Of a DNA stretch of 64,000 bases, positions 256-59,489 are shown one piece after another; position 1 is the stretch's first letter, and each line of letters opens with the position of its first letter. A program made the position numbers and the translations under genes. Source of the DNA: Pyrinomonadaceae bacterium (GTDB lineage: Bacteria > Acidobacteriota > Blastocatellia > Pyrinomonadales > Pyrinomonadaceae); contig DATARW010000039.1 of the NCBI GenBank assembly GCA_036263975.1, forward strand, positions 30,669 to 94,668, given 5' to 3'. Below the pieces are notes generated by a model. The model was given only the letters and a program-made list of their open reading frames with translations, was not told where the DNA came from and did no database searches.

Positions 256-780
256 ATGTCAGCAACGGCCCCCGCCAGACCCGAAGCGAACGAATACGCG
301 TCCTACTACGAGAAGTACATCTCGCTCGTCCCCGACGCCGGAGTGGTCGAGACGCTGGAGCGGCAGAACGAGGAGACGCTTGCGCTGCTCGGCACCGTCG
401 GGGAAGAGCGCGCGGGCTTCCGGTACGAGCCGGGCAAGTGGAGCATCAAGGAGGTCGTCGGCCACCTGATTGATGCCGAGCGCATCTTCGCCTACCGCGC
501 GCTGGCATTCGCGCGCGGCGAGCGGCAAGCTCTGCCCGGCATGGATCAAGACGAGTACATGGCCGGCGCGGACTTCGACGCGCGCACGCTCGTCAGCCTC
601 GCCGAAGAGTTCGCGCACGTGCGCCGCTCGAACGTCCTCATGCTGCGCGGACTCTCCGCCGATGCGTGGTCGCGCCGCGGCGTGGCGAGCGACAACGAGG
701 TGACGGTGCGCGCCCTCGCCTACATCATCGCCGGCCACGAAGCGCACCACGTACAGATTCTGCGCGCGAGATACCTGTAA
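256..780 (+). CDS. DinB-family (DinB_2 / YfiT-like) metal-dependent protein
   Basis: 174-aa ORF with a GAAGGAG RBS at 241-247. His-containing motifs HLIDAERIF and [10 protein letters not shown] are typical of the DinB four-helix-bundle family. Confidence 0.85.
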
Positions 781-786
781 GAGCAG

Positions 787-895
787 GGATGAAGGCGGAA
801 GGATGAAGACCGAGAAAAAGACGAGGCGAGTCGGAAAAAAGTCGAAGCCGACGAAGGATGACTCCGCCTCATCCTTCATCCTTCCGCCTTCATCC
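787..895. repeat. Palindrome with perfect 22-bp arms GGATGAAGGCGGAAGGATGAAG (7-nt words GGATGAA/GGCGGAA)
   Basis: Arm 787-808 is the exact reverse complement of 874-895. An inner second pair is GAGGCGAGTC / GACTCCGCCTC. Confidence 0.85.
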
Positions 896-1378
896 TTGCC
901 TTTGATCGCCGTCATCATGGGCAGCACGTCGGACTGGGAGACGATGCGCCACGCTGACGAAGTGCTGAAGCAGTTCGGCGTGCCGCACGAGTGTCTGGTC
1001 GTGTCGGCACATCGCACGCCGCAATGGATGGCGGAGTTCGCTTCCGGCGCAGAAGGACGCGGCCTCGAAGTAATCATCGCGGGCGCGGGCGGCGCGGCGC
1101 ATTTGGCCGGAATGGTCGCCGCACAGACGACCGTGCCCGTCCTCGGCGTGCCCGTCGAGAGCAAGGCTTTGAAGGGCTTGGACTCTCTGCTCTCAATCGT
1201 GCAGATGCCCGCAGGCGTCCCCGTCGGCACGCTCGCCATCGGCGTGAGCGGCGCGACCAACGCCGCCCTGCTCGCCGTCGCCATGCTCGCCAACACGCGG
1301 CCAGAACTGAGGGAAAAGCTACGGCGATTCCGCGAGGAGCAGACCGCGAAGGTGCGAGGGGTCACTCTGCCGACATGA
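803..1378 (+). CDS. purE: N5-carboxyaminoimidazole ribonucleotide mutase PurE (start uncertain)
   Basis: [11 protein letters not shown]...VSAHRTP...[14 protein letters not shown]...VPVLGVPV...[17 protein letters not shown] matches PurE throughout. The ATG at 803 lies inside the 787-895 palindrome, so the first ~30 codons are doubtful. TTG 896 or ATG 917 are alternative starts; none has a good RBS. Confidence 0.9.
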
Positions 1379-2535
1379 GCGCGATACTGCCCGGAGCCAC
1401 GGTCGGCGTACTCGGCAGCGGCCAGTTGGGTCGCATGTTCGCCATCGCCGCGCGAAGGATGGGCTACCGCGTCCACACCTTCTCGCCCGACTCCGACACG
1501 CCGACGGGACAGATTTCCGACCGCGAGTACCAGCGACCTTACGAAGACCTCGACGCCGTTGCCGAGTTCGCGCGCGGCGTCTCGGTGTTGACTTTCGAGT
1601 TCGAGAACGTGCCCGCCGAAGCGGTCGAGGCCGCCTCGCAGCGCGTGCCCGTCAGACCCTCCGGCGAGGTTCTCTACACGACGCAGAACCGACTGCGCGA
1701 AAAAAACTTTCTCTCGCGCTGGGGCTTCCCCGTCACACGCTTCCGCCACATCACCTCCGAAGAATCTTTGCGCGCGGCGCTCGCAGAGATCGGCTACCCG
1801 GCGATTCTCAAGACGGCAAGCTCCGGCTACGACGGCAAGGGACAGATGCGTCTGGACTCCGCCGAAGATGTCGAGCAAAGGGCCGCCTCTCTCGGAGAGC
1901 GCGAATGGATTCTCGAAGCCTTCGTTGACTTCGAGCGCGAGGTTTCGGTCGTCGCCGCACGCACCGCGGCAGGCGAGTTCAGGCACTACGGCGTCATCGA
2001 GAACGCGCACCGCCGTCACATACTCGATCTCTCGGTCGCGCCCGCGCGCGTCGCGGAATCGGTCGTGCGCGAAGCGGTCGAGATCACGCGCGCAGTCCTC
2101 GAAGCGCTCGACGTGGTCGGCGTCATGTGCGTCGAGTTCTTCCACGCGCGCGACGGTCGCCTGCTCATCAACGAACTCGCGCCGCGCCCGCACAACTCCG
2201 GCCACCTCACCGTTGACGCCTGCTTGACCAGCCAGTTCGAGCAGCAGCTCAGGGCCGTCTGCGGCCTGCCGCTCGGTTCGACCGAGATGACGCGGCCCGC
2301 GGCGATGGCGAACCTGCTCGGCGACCTCTGGCACGAGGGCGAGCCGGACTGGCGCGCGGTGCTCACGTTTCCCGCCGTCAAGCTCCACCTCTACGGCAAG
2401 TCGGAGGCGCGGCCCGGTCGGAAGATGGGACACCTCACGGCGCTCGCCGCGAGTGCGGAAGAGGCCGCACGCACCGTGCTCGCCGCGCGCGACGCGCTCA
2501 TGCGCTCGCGCGCCAGCGGACGAGGAAATCTTTAA
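1375..2535 (+). CDS. purK: N5-carboxyaminoimidazole ribonucleotide synthase PurK (ATP-grasp)
   Basis: The ATG at 1375 overlaps the purE stop (ATGA). N-terminus [21 protein letters not shown] plus ATP-grasp motifs ([26 protein letters not shown]). Confidence 0.9.
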
Positions 2536-3720: not shown

Positions 3721-3838
3721 TTGTCAACTCGGAAGCTTAGAGGATGTGTGTAGGCCGCCTTGCTTCGGCAGTCGCGGGCCGGGGTGTATAATTTCAGGCG
3801 ACTCCCCTGGTCTATACTTTGGCAGAACGGAGCAGGCA

Positions 3839-4480
3839 ATGAAACGCAGAATCGTCCTCGTCGTGTTGCTCGGCGCACTGGTGGTCGGCGCGTCGGCGGC
3901 ACGCGCGTTCGCGCACGCTCAAAACGCCGCGCCGCAGGTTCCGCCCGACCGCGTCTCGCTCGAAGAGTTCAAGACGCTGCGCGCGGAAGGTAAAGTCCTC
4001 GTCCTCGACGTGCGCGTCGGGGCCACGACGAAGATCAAGGGCGCTACCTACATCCCGCTCGACCAGCTTGAAGCGCATTTGTCGGAGCTTCCGCGCGACC
4101 GCGAGATCGTCACCTACTGCTCTTGACCGCAGGAGCACACCAGCGCCCGTGCGGCGCAGATACTCCGCGATAAAGGTTTCAAAGCGCGCGCCCTCCTCGG
4201 CGGCTTCCCCGCCTGGACAGCCGCGGGCGGCGAGACCGCGCCGATTACAGAGGCTGAGAAAACCATGCCGCAGCCGACCAGCAACGCGCAACCGGCGCAG
4301 CAGAAGCAGGTCGTCGCCTCGCCCAACCCGACCATAGACGACAGCAAGACGAAGCCGGGCGAAGCGACGAAGGTCGAGGGCACGCAGGTTCAGCCCGCCG
4401 CGACGACGACCGATGCGCCGTTGAAGACTACGAAGGGCAAGAAGTCGAAGCACCGGCGGACGAAGCCGAGCGGCGACTGA
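3839..4480 (+). CDS. Secreted rhodanese-domain protein interrupted by an in-frame TGA at 4124-4126 (selenoprotein candidate or nonsense pseudogene); the conventional call would be 3839-4126
   Basis: Signal peptide MKRRIVLVVLLGALVVGASAARAFA. The rhodanese core ends ...EIVTYCS-TGA. The same frame continues PQEHTSARAAQILRDKGFKARALLGGFPAWTAAGG, which is the rest of the rhodanese fold, plus a K/T/P-rich tail to the stop at 4478-4480. Confidence 0.6.
4132..4166 (+). promoter_or_regulatory. SECIS-like hairpin downstream of the in-frame TGA
   Basis: Lower stem GGAG(4132-4135)/CUCC(4163-4166). Upper stem GCGCC(4143-4147)/GGCGC(4153-4157). Apical loop CGUGC, with GU about 25 nt after the U of UGA. Confidence 0.35.
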
Positions 4481-12497: not shown

Positions 12498-14654
12498 CTA
12501 TTCGATTTTTCCCTGCAACTTGATCTCGTGCGTCGTGCCCGCCTCGCCCGTGACTTCGACGGGCGCGCGCCAGGTGAGCGTCTTGATGCGGCACGTGCCC
12601 GTGTTGTCCTCGCGGCAGTAGTAGAGCGTGAGTTGGACGCGAAGGGTCGCCGCACCCGGCGCGAGCGCGCGCAGGGGCAGGCTGAGCGGCAGGCGCAAAT
12701 CTTTCGCCGTCCTGCCGAGCGACGGCGCGTCGGCTGCCGCGCCGTCGCCGAGCGCGAGACGCTCTGCGCCGCCCTCGACGGAGACTTTGTAGTGCTGCGG
12801 CGCGGACGGGTTGAGGTGATAACCGGCGGGCAGCGCGACATCAACGACGAGCATGGCGTCGCCCGAAGCGGCGATGCGCTGCGGCGCGGCCTTGAACTCT
12901 TCGGCGTTCGGCCCTGCCGATTCCGGCTCGCCCGACGCGTTCGTGCTCGCCGTCGCGGGCTGCGCGGGCGGTTGCAGGCCGCGTATGACGAGCGTGGTGG
13001 TCTGCTTCGACGCGAGGTCAACGACGCGGACGGCGTGGTTGTTCGTGTCGGCGACGTAGAGATGCCCGCGGGCGACGGCAAGGCCGCCCGGCTCGTAGAA
13101 GGAGGCTCCTGCGCCGTCCGTCTGGCCGGGCTTGCCCGTCCCGGCGAAGGTCTTGACGGTGCGGGCGCGCGGGTCGAGCACCTTGATCTTGTGGTTGTAG
13201 GTGTCGGCGATGAAGAGTCGCCCGTCGCTGAGCGCCAGGCCGAGCGGGTGTTGCAGGCGCACGTCGTCGCCCTCGCCGTCGCGGTCGCCGAAGTCGAAGA
13301 GGTCGCCGCCCGCGAGCGTCTGCACCTCTCCGGCGGAGACGGATGATGAGAGCGACGCCGCTCGCAACTCCGCCTCGTTCATCTTCGAGTCGCCGCGCGC
13401 CGCGTTCGTCTTCGAGTCGTCGCGCGAGAGCGCGCCCGCCAGCGAGACGGCGCGGATTGTGTTCGACTCGGCGTCTGAGACGTAGAGCGTCTTGCCGTCC
13501 GAGGCCAGACCCGAAGGCTGCGCGAACCCGGCTTCGTCGCGCGGGCCATCGGCGCGCGCCTCACGGCCCGTCCCGGCGAAGACTGAAAGCTGCTGCGTGT
13601 CGAGGTCGAGCCTCCAAATCTGGTGCGGCCCGGCCATCGCGATGTAGAGAGCGCGCCCCACGCAAGCCAAGTCCCACGGCGAGCTGATCGGCGTCGAGCG
13701 CGCGGGGCCGCCGCGCACGCCCATGTCGAGGAGCTGCGCGCCCGTGCCCGCGATGGTCTGCACGTTGCGCGCCTTCAGGTCAACGCGGCGGATGAGATGA
13801 TTCTCCGTGTCGGCGACGTAAAGCGTGTCGCCGTCGAGCGCCAACCCTTGCGGGCGGTTGAACGTTGCGGCGTCGAACGCGCCGTCTCGCGCGCCGTGCT
13901 CGCCCGTGCCGATGGTGTCGAGGAGCGTGCCGTCGAGCCGCGTGACGACGACGCGGTTGTGGTTCGAGTCGGCGATGAAGAGGCGTTCGCTTTTTTCATC
14001 AGCCAGAATTTTTCCGGGGAAGGCGAGCGGCAGGTCGCCCGTCTTCGCGCGCTCCAACGCGAGCTTTAAAGGCTGCTCGTTGAGCGTGCCGCGCTTGCGT
14101 GCGTCCTCGACCAGCTCGCCGATGGCTTTGTCGAGCGCATCGTAGTGGCCTTCGCCCGCGGCCTCGCCGACGACGTAGCCGTCCGTGTCAATCAGCGCGA
14201 GCGTCGGCCACGCGTTGACGGCGTAGGCGTGCCAGATGCGGAAGTCGGCGTCGTTGACGACGGGGTGTTCGATCCCGTAGCGGAGGATGATGTGTCGTAT
14301 GTTTTCGGTCTCCTTCTCGTTCTCGAACTTCGCGGAGTGGACGCCGATGACGACAAGCTGCTTCGAGTATTTCTCTTCGAGCCGCTTGAGGTCTGGGATG
14401 ATGTGCATGCAGTTGACGCAGCCGTAAGTCCAGAAGTCGAGGAGCACCACCTTGCCGCGCAAGCCCGCAATCGAGAGCGGCTTGTCGGTGTTCAGCCAGC
14501 CGCGCCCGCCCTCCAGTTCCGGCGCGCGCACACGCCCCCGCAGCCGCGCTTGCAACACGTCGTCACCGCCTTTCTCTTGATCGTCCTGCGCCCGCGCGCC
14601 CGCCGACAGCGACAGGCAAACGCAGAACGCCAGCAGCAATACTCTCTTCGACAT
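12498..14654 (-). CDS. Secreted thioredoxin-like + NHL-repeat protein (NHLRC2-like)
   Basis: Signal peptide MSKRVLLLAFCVCLSLSAGARA. Redoxin motif FWTYGCVNCMH. Repeated NHL-type units (LYVADTxNHxIR). ATG 14654 with GGAGG upstream. Confidence 0.85.
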   Translation of the reverse strand: MSKRVLLLAFCVCLSLSAGARAQDDQEKGGDDVLQARLRGRVRAPELEGGRGWLNTDKPLSIAGLRGKVVLLDFWTYGCVNCMHIIPDLKRLEEKYSKQLVVIGVHSAKFENEKETENIRHIILRYGIEHPVVNDADFRIWHAYAVNAWPTLALIDTDGYVVGEAAGEGHYDALDKAIGELVEDARKRGTLNEQPLKLALERAKTGDLPLAFPGKILADEKSERLFIADSNHNRVVVTRLDGTLLDTIGTGEHGARDGAFDAATFNRPQGLALDGDTLYVADTENHLIRRVDLKARNVQTIAGTGAQLLDMGVRGGPARSTPISSPWDLACVGRALYIAMAGPHQIWRLDLDTQQLSVFAGTGREARADGPRDEAGFAQPSGLASDGKTLYVSDAESNTIRAVSLAGALSRDDSKTNAARGDSKMNEAELRAASLSSSVSAGEVQTLAGGDLFDFGDRDGEGDDVRLQHPLGLALSDGRLFIADTYNHKIKVLDPRARTVKTFAGTGKPGQTDGAGASFYEPGGLAVARGHLYVADTNNHAVRVVDLASKQTTTLVIRGLQPPAQPATASTNASGEPESAGPNAEEFKAAPQRIAASGDAMLVVDVALPAGYHLNPSAPQHYKVSVEGGAERLALGDGAAADAPSLGRTAKDLRLPLSLPLRALAPGAATLRVQLTLYYCREDNTGTCRIKTLTWRAPVEVTGEAGTTHEIKLQGKIE

Positions 14655-14713
14655 CGTTCGGCCTCCGGGCGGGCAAAGCCCCCGCCCCGGCTTCATCGCG
14701 TCAGCACCGGCGT

Positions 14714-40885: not shown

Positions 40886-41797
40886 TTACCACCGTTGTCT
40901 GGTCGCCGTGCTGTGGCGCGTGATGTTGCGGCCATTGTCGTGCATGTGCGCGTAGGCCGACTGCACGGCCACGCGGCCCGGCCCGAAGAGGCGCAGCCAG
41001 AGGTAGCGCTCGCCCCACGAGCGCCAGGAGCGCGTCGTCCCGTTCGGGTGCTCGAAGTGGAGCTGCATCTGCACGGAAGGGTCTTTGAAGAGAAGCGCCG
41101 TCGGCTTCACCAGAATCGTCTGCCCCTGCGCGAGGTGGCGCGTGAAGACGTTGCCCGCGGCGTGCAGCAGCAGAAGGCCCGGCGACTGCGGGGCGTAGAA
41201 GCGATCCATGTATGCGCCCAGGGGGTAGTGCGTCTCGGTCTCGTCGCCGTTGCGCGTGTTGAACCAGACGTTCGTGGAGAACCAGTCGTAGGTGATGTTG
41301 AGGGTCGCCACCATGAAGATGTGCTCGCGCACGTCAACGCCCTGGCCGGGTTGGAGCGGGAGTGCGATCACTTCGCCTGCGGCGTCCATCGAGAAGGCGA
41401 TGTGGCCGGGGCCGACGGCCTGCGTCATGATGAGCGGGAGTCCCGCGAAGAGGCGCTTCCAAGCGCCTTTCAGAGACATCGCGGTGATGTTCACCTGCGG
41501 CTCTTTCCACAGAAGGACGTGGTGCGAGAAGTAGACGCCGTCCGCAGGCGAGAGGTTGAAGTCGGCGACGGGGACGTAAGTTCCTTCGATCTGGCAGTGG
41601 GAGTTGCCGAACTGCAACTTCGCCATGTCGTGCCTGCCCGGTAGCTCCGTCCAGCCGGAGTTCGTCACGATTCGCTCGACATCAATGGTCGCGCCGCAGG
41701 CGGGGCAGTTCAACTGCGTGCCGTCCGAGACGAGGCCGCACCAGGGGCACGTGTGCGTGCGCGTCGGTTGGTTCGGGGCCGTGCCGCCGAGAGTCAT
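40886..41797 (-). CDS. Zinc-ribbon + AIM24/DUF124 (TIGR00266-like) protein
   Basis: N-terminal CPWCG...CPACG ribbon. The AIM24-like body follows (FSHHVLLW, GPGHIAFS, VDVREHIFMVAT, GLLLLHAAGNVF, LVKPTALLF, LFGPGRVAVQS). Confidence 0.75.
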   Translation of the reverse strand: MTLGGTAPNQPTRTHTCPWCGLVSDGTQLNCPACGATIDVERIVTNSGWTELPGRHDMAKLQFGNSHCQIEGTYVPVADFNLSPADGVYFSHHVLLWKEPQVNITAMSLKGAWKRLFAGLPLIMTQAVGPGHIAFSMDAAGEVIALPLQPGQGVDVREHIFMVATLNITYDWFSTNVWFNTRNGDETETHYPLGAYMDRFYAPQSPGLLLLHAAGNVFTRHLAQGQTILVKPTALLFKDPSVQMQLHFEHPNGTTRSWRSWGERYLWLRLFGPGRVAVQSAYAHMHDNGRNITRHSTATRQRW

Positions 41798-41812
41798 GGC
41801 CGAAAGCCCTCC

Positions 41813-42850
41813 TCAGTCTGTGTGGTGGTGGACATACATGGACTGGATGCCGACTCTACCGGGGCCGGTCATGCGCGCGAGGTTCATCCCCGTGCCGCCG
41901 AAAAAGCCCGTGGTCAGCTTCTGCGTCTCGACGTTCATCGTCACGGAGGCGTCCTTGTAGAGGAACGCGCCCGGCTCGATCATGATGCTCTCGCCCGGCT
42001 GCAACACGCGCTCGAACACGTCGCCGTAGCCGTGCAGCAGAAGCAGTCCCGGCTGCTGGCCCGTGACGAAGCGATCCATGAACATGCCCTGCCCGCCGAA
42101 GAGGATGTTCCGAAGGCCCTTGATGCGGACGTAGGAATAAGAGATGTGGTGCGAGGCGAGGAGGAAGGCGTGCTCGCGCACGTCCAGCTCCATGCCGGGG
42201 TGCAAAGGCATGACGACCAGCTCGCCCGTGGCGTCGCGCGAGAAGGCGATGCGGCCCGGCCCGTAGGCGAGGCTGATGATGAAGGGCATGCCGGCGAGAG
42301 CGCGCTTGATGCCGCCTTGCAGGGGCATCACGCCCATCGGCGTGCGGTCGTCCTTCCAGAGCATGACGTGGTGCTCGAAGAAGACCGAATCGCCCTGCGC
42401 GAGGTTCAGCTCGGCGACGGGGACGATCTCGCCCTCGACCTGGCAGGTGCTCGCGCCGAAGTGAATCTCCGTCATGTCCTTGATGCGCGGGGCCTCGCGC
42501 CAGCCCGACTCGCTCACAAGGTTCTTGATGTCCAAAGGCGCACCGCACGCGCGGCACGACAGCGCCGTCTTCTCGTTCATCGCCTGACACCACTCGCAAC
42601 GGAGGCGTTCGAGCGGGTCTGCCGCCGGAGCATTCGCGACGCGCGGCGCTTCGACGCGTCGCGGCTCGGCGTGCTGCGGCGCGGGCGTCGGCTGAACGAC
42701 CGGGCCTGACGGCCAGCCCTGCGCCGCCGGCTGGTTGTACTGCTGCCCGGCTGAAGGCGTCGGCGCGTCTTCGACCAGACGCGTGCCGTCGAGACCGCAG
42801 AAAGCCTTCGTGTCGTCGAAGGTTCGGTTACACGTGGGACAGTGCTTCAT
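41813..42850 (-). CDS. Double zinc-ribbon + AIM24/DUF124 (TIGR00266-like) protein
   Basis: CPTCN..FCGLDG and CEWCQ...CRACG ribbons, then an AIM24-like body collinear with the downstream paralogue. ATG 42850 with a GGAGG RBS. Confidence 0.75.
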   Translation of the reverse strand: MKHCPTCNRTFDDTKAFCGLDGTRLVEDAPTPSAGQQYNQPAAQGWPSGPVVQPTPAPQHAEPRRVEAPRVANAPAADPLERLRCEWCQAMNEKTALSCRACGAPLDIKNLVSESGWREAPRIKDMTEIHFGASTCQVEGEIVPVAELNLAQGDSVFFEHHVMLWKDDRTPMGVMPLQGGIKRALAGMPFIISLAYGPGRIAFSRDATGELVVMPLHPGMELDVREHAFLLASHHISYSYVRIKGLRNILFGGQGMFMDRFVTGQQPGLLLLHGYGDVFERVLQPGESIMIEPGAFLYKDASVTMNVETQKLTTGFFGGTGMNLARMTGPGRVGIQSMYVHHHTD

Positions 42851-42913
42851 TGATTCCTCCGAGTTGACTCGATGTTCTCGCCCCGACAAGATCGCGCGCG
42901 GGCGGCACGCAAG

Positions 42914-58324: not shown

Positions 58325-59489
58325 ATTTGAAATCGTTGACAACCCTGACCTCCACGTTATTTAATGAATTAGTCGCCGCCCTTCCGCGGCACCGATCTTT
58401 CAGGAGCGATTGCACACGATAATGGCAAACCCGCCGCGAGGCGGGGGCGCAAAGCCGTGAGTCTCCGGGACGGCAACGAGTTTTTTCTGCCCTTGGAGAT
58501 CGTCTGGTTGCCGAAGAGTAGTCAGCATCCGCCACTCTGCATAATCCTCCCTTCGGACTGACCACGTCACCTCCACGCCCCGGCTAACGAGCGCAGCAAC
58601 GCGGCAACGGAACGCGATACGCAATCTCTCATCGGACTTCCCGGCCACAGACTTCCGACCGGTCGAACAGTCAGACGCGCAGGTCTTTGAAACTAAGAGT
58701 GCAGCCGCCAGCAGAGTGCGCGGCGGGAGTGCTGCGGCGCTCGTCCGGCTACCCTTCCCGTTCCGCCTCGGAATTAAAGACAGCCCTTTCCGCCACCGTG
58801 GCCGAAAGGCCGGCTAGGCTATAGGGCCCATGTCGTACGACGAGCAGGCAACGATTCCCCGCAGAGTCATGTCGGACAGGTGCGTAGCGCTAATTCTTGC
58901 CTCCCGAGCGACTGGCTGAAAAAGGATATGATTTTAACGAAATCAGCAAGAATTAGGCGTCTACTAAGGTGGTTACGGCAAGGTTGATGATTTCGACCAT
59001 GGGCGTCGGGGCATCAGTGCGAAGCCCTTGGTCGCGGTGCCCCGTACGCGCCCGGCGACCGGAAATGGCGGAAGCCGCGGCGGCATAAGATTTGTTCCTG
59101 AACCGAGGCGTCCCGGCTAGGGGCGCATTATTGGCGGTTCTTGGCTCTTTTCACACAACGCTGCGTAAATTTCCTCTGTGGGGGAATGAGGCAGCCGTCA
59201 CTATTCAGGTCACGGGTGTGTTAAACCTTGGTTGACAAGGTAAACCGTCACCCGCGCTCCCGAATAGCTTTACCTGAGGCGGGCAGGGTTCTCGCAAATG
59301 AGAGCTTGCGCGAACACGGCGATAAGTATAGACTGCGCTTTCGCGGTCCGGTCAGGCTCATCCAAGATGCGATCACACTTCGTGACCGTCTCGAACCTTA
59401 CGTTTTTCCGCCTCTTACGCGGCGGCCCTTTCAGTGCTTCTCGGCTTCACCCTTAGATTAAGCGACCGCCGTAGCGTGGGGAGGCGAAA
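58325..59489. other. 1.16-kb ORF-free segment rich in tetraloop-capped GC stems (structured RNA or decayed DNA)
   Basis: No credible ORF. Stems include CCCGCC-GCGA-GGCGGG (58430-58445), GGCC-GAAA-GGCC (58800-58811), nested GCAGC/CGCC...GGCG/GCTGC (58701-58735) and the palindrome CGACCGGTCG (58656-58665). Confidence 0.3.
58336..58363 (+). promoter_or_regulatory. Sigma-70-like promoter pointing into the ORF-free region
   Basis: TTGACA (58336-58341), 16-nt spacer, TATTTA (58358-58363). Confidence 0.3.

Follow-up and report, generated by a model that had tools for sequence, protein, structure and literature searches.

The locus described here raises the question of whether an in-frame UGA within a bacterial rhodanese gene serves as a stop codon or as a codon for selenocysteine (Sec). 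The gene occupies positions 3839-4480 (+ strand) of a 64,000-nucleotide stretch of DNA from a Pyrinomonadaceae bacterium (phylum Acidobacteriota; assembly GCA_036263975.1, contig DATARW010000039.1, positions 30,669 to 94,668 of the forward strand); the whole of this stretch is referred to as the window. An ATG at 3839 opens a frame of 213 codons that begins MKRRIVLVV...EIVTYCS, the last three residues being encoded by TAC TGC TCT, and that is interrupted once, by the TGA at 4124-4126. Past this TGA the same frame stays open for 117 codons, with no frameshift or stop among them, up to the TGA at 4478-4480. The initial annotation of this region had described the same interruption and the same open stretch, at coordinates that proved to be correct, and had left two possibilities standing, namely Sec recoding and a nonsense mutation of recent origin. 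Comparison across loci decides for the former. Our reading, drawn from the sequence and held at a probability of about 0.88, is that UGA 4124-4126 is the codon for Sec96 of one 213-residue exported rhodanese-domain selenoprotein, and that 3839-4480 is thus a predicted selenoprotein gene of 213 codons including Sec96.

A first line of evidence comes from the domain that the TGA interrupts. With Cys placed at the TGA position, the read-through product matched positions 2-102 of the 102-position Pfam profile PF00581 at 43 bits (gathering threshold 22.2), and the rhodanese homology domain so defined (residues 41-129; 3959-4225, + strand) extends across the TGA. The 95-amino acid (aa) truncated product covered profile positions 2-69 only, at 23.9 bits. 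Because the profile is completed only by read-through, the residues that follow the TGA are the missing part of the rhodanese domain, as had been proposed from the start, and the TGA splits one globular domain inside its active-site loop. Cys94 (TGC, 4118-4120, + strand) occupies the canonical position of the rhodanese catalytic cysteine. It aligned with the catalytic-position cysteine of the persulfide reductase 3nta rhodanese domain and of other solved rhodaneses, and it was invariant across all homologues compared. The predicted Sec96 (UGA, 4124-4126, + strand), assigned by codon comparison across loci, lies two residues past Cys94 in a C-S-U motif.

If the TGA were a true stop, the gene would instead specify a 95-residue secreted fragment together with a separate downstream product. 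Relatives are in fact called as split products by the JGI and NCBI pipelines: JGI gene calls cut the copy on the near-identical contig L102 into 95-aa and 71-aa products, and public gene calls list locus L002 as separate 94-aa and 125-aa products. Three loci (L002, L003 and L004) also have an ATG directly after the TGA, as would suit an independent start. However, the cut would break up a single globular domain at its active-site loop, and the second half is without a signal peptide, such that the two pieces would reside in different compartments. Moreover, the frame, the sequence and the RNA hairpin described below are conserved over the junction in about 60 lineages. We consider it very improbable that the TGA ends the protein.

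Comparison of homologues showed that TGA is the prevailing state at this position. A motif scan of metagenome contigs yielded 80 loci, and full-length homologues matched query residues 1-213 through the TGA with identities of up to 82%. At the column in question, 72 hits had TGA (58 distinct sequences) and 20 had TGT or TGC. A looser motif search added three TGA loci (L002, L003 and L004) and about 10 Cys loci, which brings the totals to at least 61 distinct homologous loci with TGA and about 30 others with TGT or TGC. Protein identity between the TGA forms and the window protein ranges from 82% down to about 40%. Some Cys homologues carry a Y-C-S-C-P-x-E loop, in agreement with the proposal in the initial annotation that the gene belongs to a Cys subfamily in which TGA has replaced the second Cys of the loop. 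The ratio of nonsynonymous to synonymous substitution rates (dN/dS) is cited from close pairs only, since distant pairs are unreliable (indels, suppression of dS by the Sec insertion sequence (SECIS), ungapped segments). In the close pairs this ratio was 0.13-0.25 downstream of the TGA and 0.16-0.21 upstream of it; in close relatives, purifying selection is as strong after the TGA as before it.

These findings bear directly on the possibility that the TGA arose by a recent TGC-to-TGA nonsense mutation in a decaying pseudogene. A single base separates TGA from a Cys codon, and the close relative L104 does carry TGT, which would suit such a history. Yet TGA is the majority state over loci from deeply diverged clades, and the 117 downstream codons are free of frameshifts and stops and retain the low dN/dS values seen in the close pairs. 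Because TGA persists in at least 61 loci down to about 40% identity, with purifying selection downstream, a recent nonsense mutation is excluded; we assign it a negligible chance.

The protein database contains both forms of the gene in several guises. Four JGI proteins (P0001-3 and P0010) have 'W' at the TGA column, which is best read as a translation-table (code-4) artefact over TGA, confirmed at the DNA level for P0001 (locus L001) only. Other homologues have Cys at the column (P0004 and P0017), end at ...YCS (P0006 and P0009) or comprise the second half of the gene only (P0005 and P0018-20). A scan of genome contigs relied on a [WC] peptide pattern that could return only Cys forms, and it is therefore uninformative about which genomes carry Sec forms.

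P0004 is the product of L104, a close relative that shares the gene neighbourhood, with a phenylalanine-hydroxylase-like gene upstream. In L104 the TGA is replaced by TGT (1887-1889 of that locus), such that the loop reads TAC TGC TCT TGT CCG, and the 15-nt hairpin described below is wholly intact despite the TGT. The initial annotation had named a close Cys relative that lacks the hairpin as an observation that would count against Sec; L104 has the Cys codon yet keeps the hairpin. We take L104 to be a recent Sec-to-Cys switch with a fossil SECIS; it and the TGA forms make a direct Sec/Cys pair. In a neighbour-joining tree there was one large Sec clade in which Cys revertants were nested, and the window protein fell within a distinct tail-bearing sub-clade.

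The second main line of evidence is a candidate bacterial SECIS (GCGCC-CGUGC-GGCGC; 4143-4157, + strand) just downstream of the UGA. Its stem pairs 4143-4147 with 4153-4157 and encloses the loop CGUGC (4148-4152). The hairpin starts 16 nt past the UGA, inside the codons for S-A-R-A-A, and this spacing was invariant among the TGA loci. When 56 TGA loci were aligned without gaps, the only structure recovered by RNAalifold was this 5-bp stem (columns 29-33/39-43), all five pairs of which were formed in 56 of the 56 sequences; over the full set of TGA loci analysed, the stem was complete in 58 of 58. Pair 29-43 was GC in 41 loci, CG in 10 and GU in 5, whereas pair 30-42 was CG in 52, UA in 2 and UG in 2. 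As read from this alignment, compensatory changes at two pairs support the stem, and none of the shuffles or slid registers came near the observed pairing and covariation figures. The loop sequence CGUGC was present in 55 of 58 TGA loci. Scoring orthologues for TGA versus Cys and for hairpin covariation had been put forward as a check when the gene was first noticed, and both results (at least 61 TGA loci; compensatory changes at two pairs) point to Sec.

Codon usage within the hairpin separated the Sec and Cys forms. Third-position entropy for the codons GCC CGT GCG was 0, 0.22 and 0 bits in Sec forms as opposed to 1.5-1.9 bits in Cys forms, whereas the codons adjoining the hairpin vary freely in Sec and Cys forms alike. 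A complete 5/5 stem was found in 1 of 18 analysed Cys forms (L048); the further Cys locus L104 is likewise intact. In the Cys form L008 the residues TSARAA are likewise encoded, but by other codons and with no hairpin. From the frozen synonymous sites, together with the recoding in L008 without a hairpin, it follows that the constraint acts on the RNA and not on the protein.

In the published model of bacterial SECIS elements (bSECIS) the loop is 3-9 nt long with a G in its first two positions, the upper stem has 4-16 bp, the loop lies 16-37 nt past the UGA and the free energy is -7.5 kcal/mol or lower (PMC13188914). The hairpin agrees with the model throughout: its loop has 5 nt, with G then U at positions 2-3, its stem has 5 bp, the distance from UGA to loop is 21 nt and the predicted free energy is -7.9 to -9.4 kcal/mol. 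The loop GU lies 23-24 nt past the A of UGA, which bears out the SECIS-like spacing claimed in the initial annotation. The longer hairpin drawn there (4132-4166) stood only in part: its upper stem and CGUGC loop are those described above, and its lower stem was not conserved. This extended stem (4132-4135 with 4163-4166) was rejected, as only 55% of cells pair; one possible extra pair, columns 27-45, was kept in 42 of 56 sequences. No SECIS family was detected in the window at Rfam gathering thresholds, and matches to the hairpin sequence in the rest of the window did not exceed chance level.

We also considered whether the UGA might be read through without Sec, with a suppressor or near-cognate tRNA inserting Trp, Cys, Ser or Gly and the hairpin only stimulating the event. 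The base after the UGA was C in the window gene and in 58 analysed TGA loci and A in the three further TGA loci; UGA followed by C is a leaky stop context. Candidates for the decoding tRNA are Acidobacteria allo-tRNAs or a SelB-like system that delivers Cys-tRNA(UCA), and both have literature precedents, in that the 8/4 and 9/3 allo-tRNAs of Acidobacteria have been proposed to suppress nonsense codons and tRNA-Cys systems of the selC* type occur in other phyla. Reports of the latter, however, are confined to anaerobic Firmicutes, Thermodesulfobacteria, Nitrospirae and Proteobacteria. Furthermore, the hairpin fits the SelB-type bSECIS model, with its loop G-U and fixed spacing, and homologues have a redox-type Cys at the column, which is the classic Sec/Cys signature. 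Read-through of this kind would also leave unexplained why the hairpin is kept with TGA and lost with a Cys codon. We judge it improbable, and retain Sec as the residue specified by this UGA.

A genome-wide change in the meaning of UGA does not account for the gene either. Of the 29 Pfam-supported genes in the window, 16 end in TGA as an ordinary stop, and so does gene 3839-4480 itself; because of this there is no genome-wide codon reassignment. Reassignment under code 4/25 was rejected, TGA being the commonest ordinary stop in the window. A scan of the window for other in-frame TGAs with coding-like GC content at third codon positions on both sides returned nothing but antisense artefacts and a pair of adjacent AIM24 genes. 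The latter (40886-42889, - strand) are tandem AIM24-domain genes in one frame, split by the TGA at 41813-41815, with the next ATG 16 nt after that TGA; they are most likely adjacent paralogues. Elsewhere in the window, a 732-residue open reading frame (ORF) with a thioredoxin-like/AhpC-TSA domain and NHL repeats (12498-14696, - strand) is uninterrupted, and thus is not a selenoprotein in this genome.

Several observations weigh against the Sec assignment. Neither selA, selB or selD nor tRNA-Sec was found in the 64-kb window or the fetched loci: ARAGORN detected no tRNA-Sec, either in the window or among 43 loci, and a Pfam scan of 36 long window ORFs detected no SelA, SelB or SelD. This result would also suit read-through without Sec. 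We assumed that the Sec machinery is encoded elsewhere in the genome. The precedent for Sec use in the literature, which counts in favour of the assignment, is at the phylum level only: Acidobacteria had 4 selenoproteins in 3 families as of 2006, Occallatibacter riparius is listed as Sec-utilising, and Sec-containing hydrogenases are present in Acidobacteriota metagenome-assembled genomes. The hairpin itself is very small, with 5 bp, and the single-sequence fold of 4118-4190 was no better than that of shuffles (z = -0.31), so that the significance of the hairpin is purely a matter of comparison across loci. The window protein scored 71.2 bits against NF041203, the NCBIfam model of the predicted selenoprotein family discussed below, which is under the 115-bit cut-off of that model. 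The literature turned up no experimental work on any C-x-U rhodanese and no experimental selenium incorporation for any member of that class. Finally, the Cys-Sec chemistry that we propose is based on residue positions only.

Under the Sec assignment, expression and function of the gene can be envisaged as follows. The minimal SECIS hairpin at 4143-4157, lying within the coding sequence, would direct Sec decoding at the UGA; by analogy with bacterial Sec decoding, SelB carrying Sec-tRNA(Sec) would bind the hairpin while the ribosome is positioned at the UGA, and deliver Sec. Following export, Cys94 would act as the persulfide-carrying nucleophile, with Sec96 in the same active-site loop as its redox partner. 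Sec96 might resolve or accept the persulfide, closing a selenenylsulfide with Cys94. The domain would then be a periplasmic sulfane-sulfur/selenium transferase or reductase and not a plain thiosulfate sulfurtransferase. That the protein is an exported sulfur/selenium transfer or redox protein using Cys94-Sec96 redox chemistry is a tentative proposal, to which we give somewhat less than even odds.

The pre-protein encoded by 3839-4480 (+ strand) is laid out as a signal peptide, the rhodanese domain and a basic low-complexity tail. A predicted Sec-type (secretory) signal peptide, MKRRIVLVVLLGALVVGASAARAFA (3839-3913, + strand), with cleavage after A-F-A at residue 25, was assigned by reading the sequence. 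Most of the approximately 70 family members with an assigned start have a hydrophobic signal-like or lipobox-like N-terminus, and a few have long or ambiguous starts. The C-terminal tail (residues 131-213; 4229-4477, + strand), in which Pro, Thr, Gln and Lys are abundant, is predicted to be disordered. It comprises about 85 residues with a basic end, and members of the clade share the conserved tail motifs ASPNPTIDDSKT and K-S-K-H-R-R-T-K-P. An AlphaFold model of P0004, a Cys homologue, stood in for the window protein. In this model the predicted local distance difference test (pLDDT) score of the domain was 81-96, and above 90 everywhere except in the active-site loop block, whereas that of the tail was 50-60 and that of the signal-peptide region was low. 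The best structural matches were single-domain rhodaneses without known function (lp_1913, 3fnj; BH2092, 3nhv; Alr3790, 3ilm), with target-normalised template modelling scores (TM-scores) of 0.68-0.77 and root mean square deviations of 1.6-2.1 Å.

Several members of the family depart from the common arrangement. In L002 (2016-2021), L003 (654-659) and L004 (2115-2120) an ATG immediately after the TGA replaces the near-invariant CCG (Pro) codon; these loci read TGA ATG CAG/GAG GAG CAC, and the SECIS hairpin is intact. Since L002 and L004 belong to different sub-clades, the three-base change from CCG to ATG seems to have arisen twice. In these UGA-AUG variants the 3′ half of the gene is called as its own ORF (P0005 and P0018-20), and the AUG is either a plain Met codon or a stop-start/reinitiation site. 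Locus L067 has a tandem pair of C-S-U rhodanese genes on one contig (at 441 and 1020), each with TGA and hairpin, and one of its two hairpins contains a compensatory U-A stem pair. Among Cys forms, P0011-P0016 carry the motif Y-C-S-C-P in fusions of a DedA membrane protein with a rhodanese (322-336 aa). The same motif occurs in L018 and L020 within proteins of about 540 aa that have a long C-terminal extension, in which GxGxG-type motifs suggest methyltransferase-like regions.

Upstream of the window gene, a consensus scan identified the promoter-like pattern TCGGCA-16 nt-TATAAT (3765-3792, + strand), with 10 of 12 consensus matches as compared with 0.1 expected in shuffles. A Shine-Dalgarno-like GGAG (3829-3832, + strand) was read from the sequence 6 nt 5′ of the ATG. 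Clustering of neighbouring genes revealed clade-level synteny only, and no family-wide operon partner. In one sub-clade (L066, L070, L079, L089, L092, L093, L097 and L098) the divergent upstream neighbour on the opposite strand has 4Fe-4S dicluster motifs and, after these, hydrophobic membrane segments. Judged by eye, this neighbour is similar to the NrfC/NrfD or polysulfide-reductase type, a possible sign of a connection with sulfur redox. In the neighbour-gene clustering it was not seen in the clade of the window gene.

Two further features of the window were recorded. A c-di-GMP-I-GGC riboswitch aptamer (Rfam RF03167; 58415-58516, + strand) scored 62.3 bits, above the gathering threshold. 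No long ORF immediately follows the aptamer, and the next ORFs on the + strand start at 59228 and 59490. The minus-strand ORF at 259-2433 (724 aa, no Pfam match) is probably an antisense artefact of GC-rich DNA; in the near-identical contig L102, the region matching window 259-2535 has DinB_2, purE (AIRC) and purK on the + strand. Look-ups of the exact products of two other window genes returned no match, probably owing to a difference in start codons.

Taken jointly, the observations could describe a large radiation, unannotated to date, of C-x-U rhodanese selenoproteins exported by soil Acidobacteriota, with a near-invariant 15-nt SECIS travelling with the gene, a Cys94-Sec96 pair carrying out a periplasmic selenium-dependent redox reaction of sulfur or selenium without a characterised counterpart, and side branches showing Sec-to-Cys reversion and UGA-AUG stop-start. 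We consider this combined picture rather unlikely. The value of the locus lies in the annotation correction, in a very clean data set of SECIS covariation and in the side observations; our knowledge of Sec decoding is unchanged by this gene, which would not surprise a selenoprotein specialist. Public annotation splits or truncates the gene and dozens of its relatives, and the labels seen on such relatives are "hypothetical protein" and "SseA". Both gene callers and the curated model NF041203 overlook the divergent clade of the window gene. Since the present cut-off of NF041203 leaves this clade out, counts of the selenoproteome of soil Acidobacteriota are too low. The family also offers a textbook-clean case in which a 15-nt SECIS constrains a protein sequence, S-A-R-A-A, and in which Cys revertants of recent origin still carry fossil SECIS elements. 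Biochemical work could reasonably be aimed at an exported Cys-x-Sec active site.

Among known bacterial SECIS elements, that of E. coli fdhF and the bSECIS consensus resemble the window hairpin in being stem-loops in the coding region just past the UGA with G-U in the loop. Compared with the consensus, the window hairpin lies near the lower size limits of the model and has no conserved lower stem. The critical G23 and U24 of the E. coli fdhF SECIS lie three nt nearer the UGA than the corresponding residues here. That element also has a bulged U, whereas no bulge was seen in the window hairpin.

The protein itself has a predicted counterpart. A "rhodanese-like protein form 3" with a C-x-U motif is an already predicted selenoprotein family that appears in two reviews, and the model for which is NCBIfam NF041203 (rhodanese_LYCAU), with TKB26178.1 as its representative (PMC13188914, PMC9312934). 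The prediction is credited there to Zhang & Gladyshev 2005, by bSECISearch. The Sargasso Sea survey likewise included rhodanese selenoproteins in its counts. The statement in the initial annotation that rhodanese-type selenoproteins had been reported was thus accurate, and it holds for the exact C-x-U motif. NF041203 was the top NCBIfam match of the window protein, and Y-C-S-U places its Sec position two residues past the catalytic Cys, as the C-x-U motif of that model specifies. Relatives scored from 63.6 to 134.9 bits; L099, at 134.9 bits, is above the cut-off and has the identical 15-nt hairpin at the same spacing. Because of this identity and of the single large Sec clade in the tree, the Sec site and SECIS of the window gene share descent with those of bona fide NF041203 members. 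Form 3 proteins and the window protein are alike in having a single rhodanese domain, a C-x-U motif and existing Cys homologues. They differ in that the window motif is T-Y-C-S-U-P-Q-E-H and not L-Y-C-A-U, and in that the window protein has the extra basic disordered C-terminal tail of about 85 residues and falls in a separate clade of the tree. As a consequence of this divergence in score, motif, tail and clade, annotation pipelines do not recognise the window protein. On its sequence we therefore assign the window gene to the already predicted C-x-U class, as part of a divergent clade with a predicted signal peptide and a long basic disordered tail; this tail-bearing clade is probably from soil Acidobacteriota.

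More distant comparisons set the active site apart. PspE, a periplasmic single-domain rhodanese, is exported like the window protein, and GlpE is cytoplasmic; the sequence scores of the window protein were weak for both (22 bits for PspE and 18 bits for GlpE). PspE, GlpE, 3fnj, 3nhv and 3ilm have neither a second Cys or Sec at +2 nor the tail. Rhodanese selenoprotein forms 1, 2 and 4 (UxxS, UxxG) and TsoB (UxxxxU) share with the window protein the rhodanese fold and a Sec in the active-site loop. In those proteins, however, Sec replaces the catalytic Cys, whereas the window protein keeps that Cys and has its predicted Sec as an additional residue at +2.

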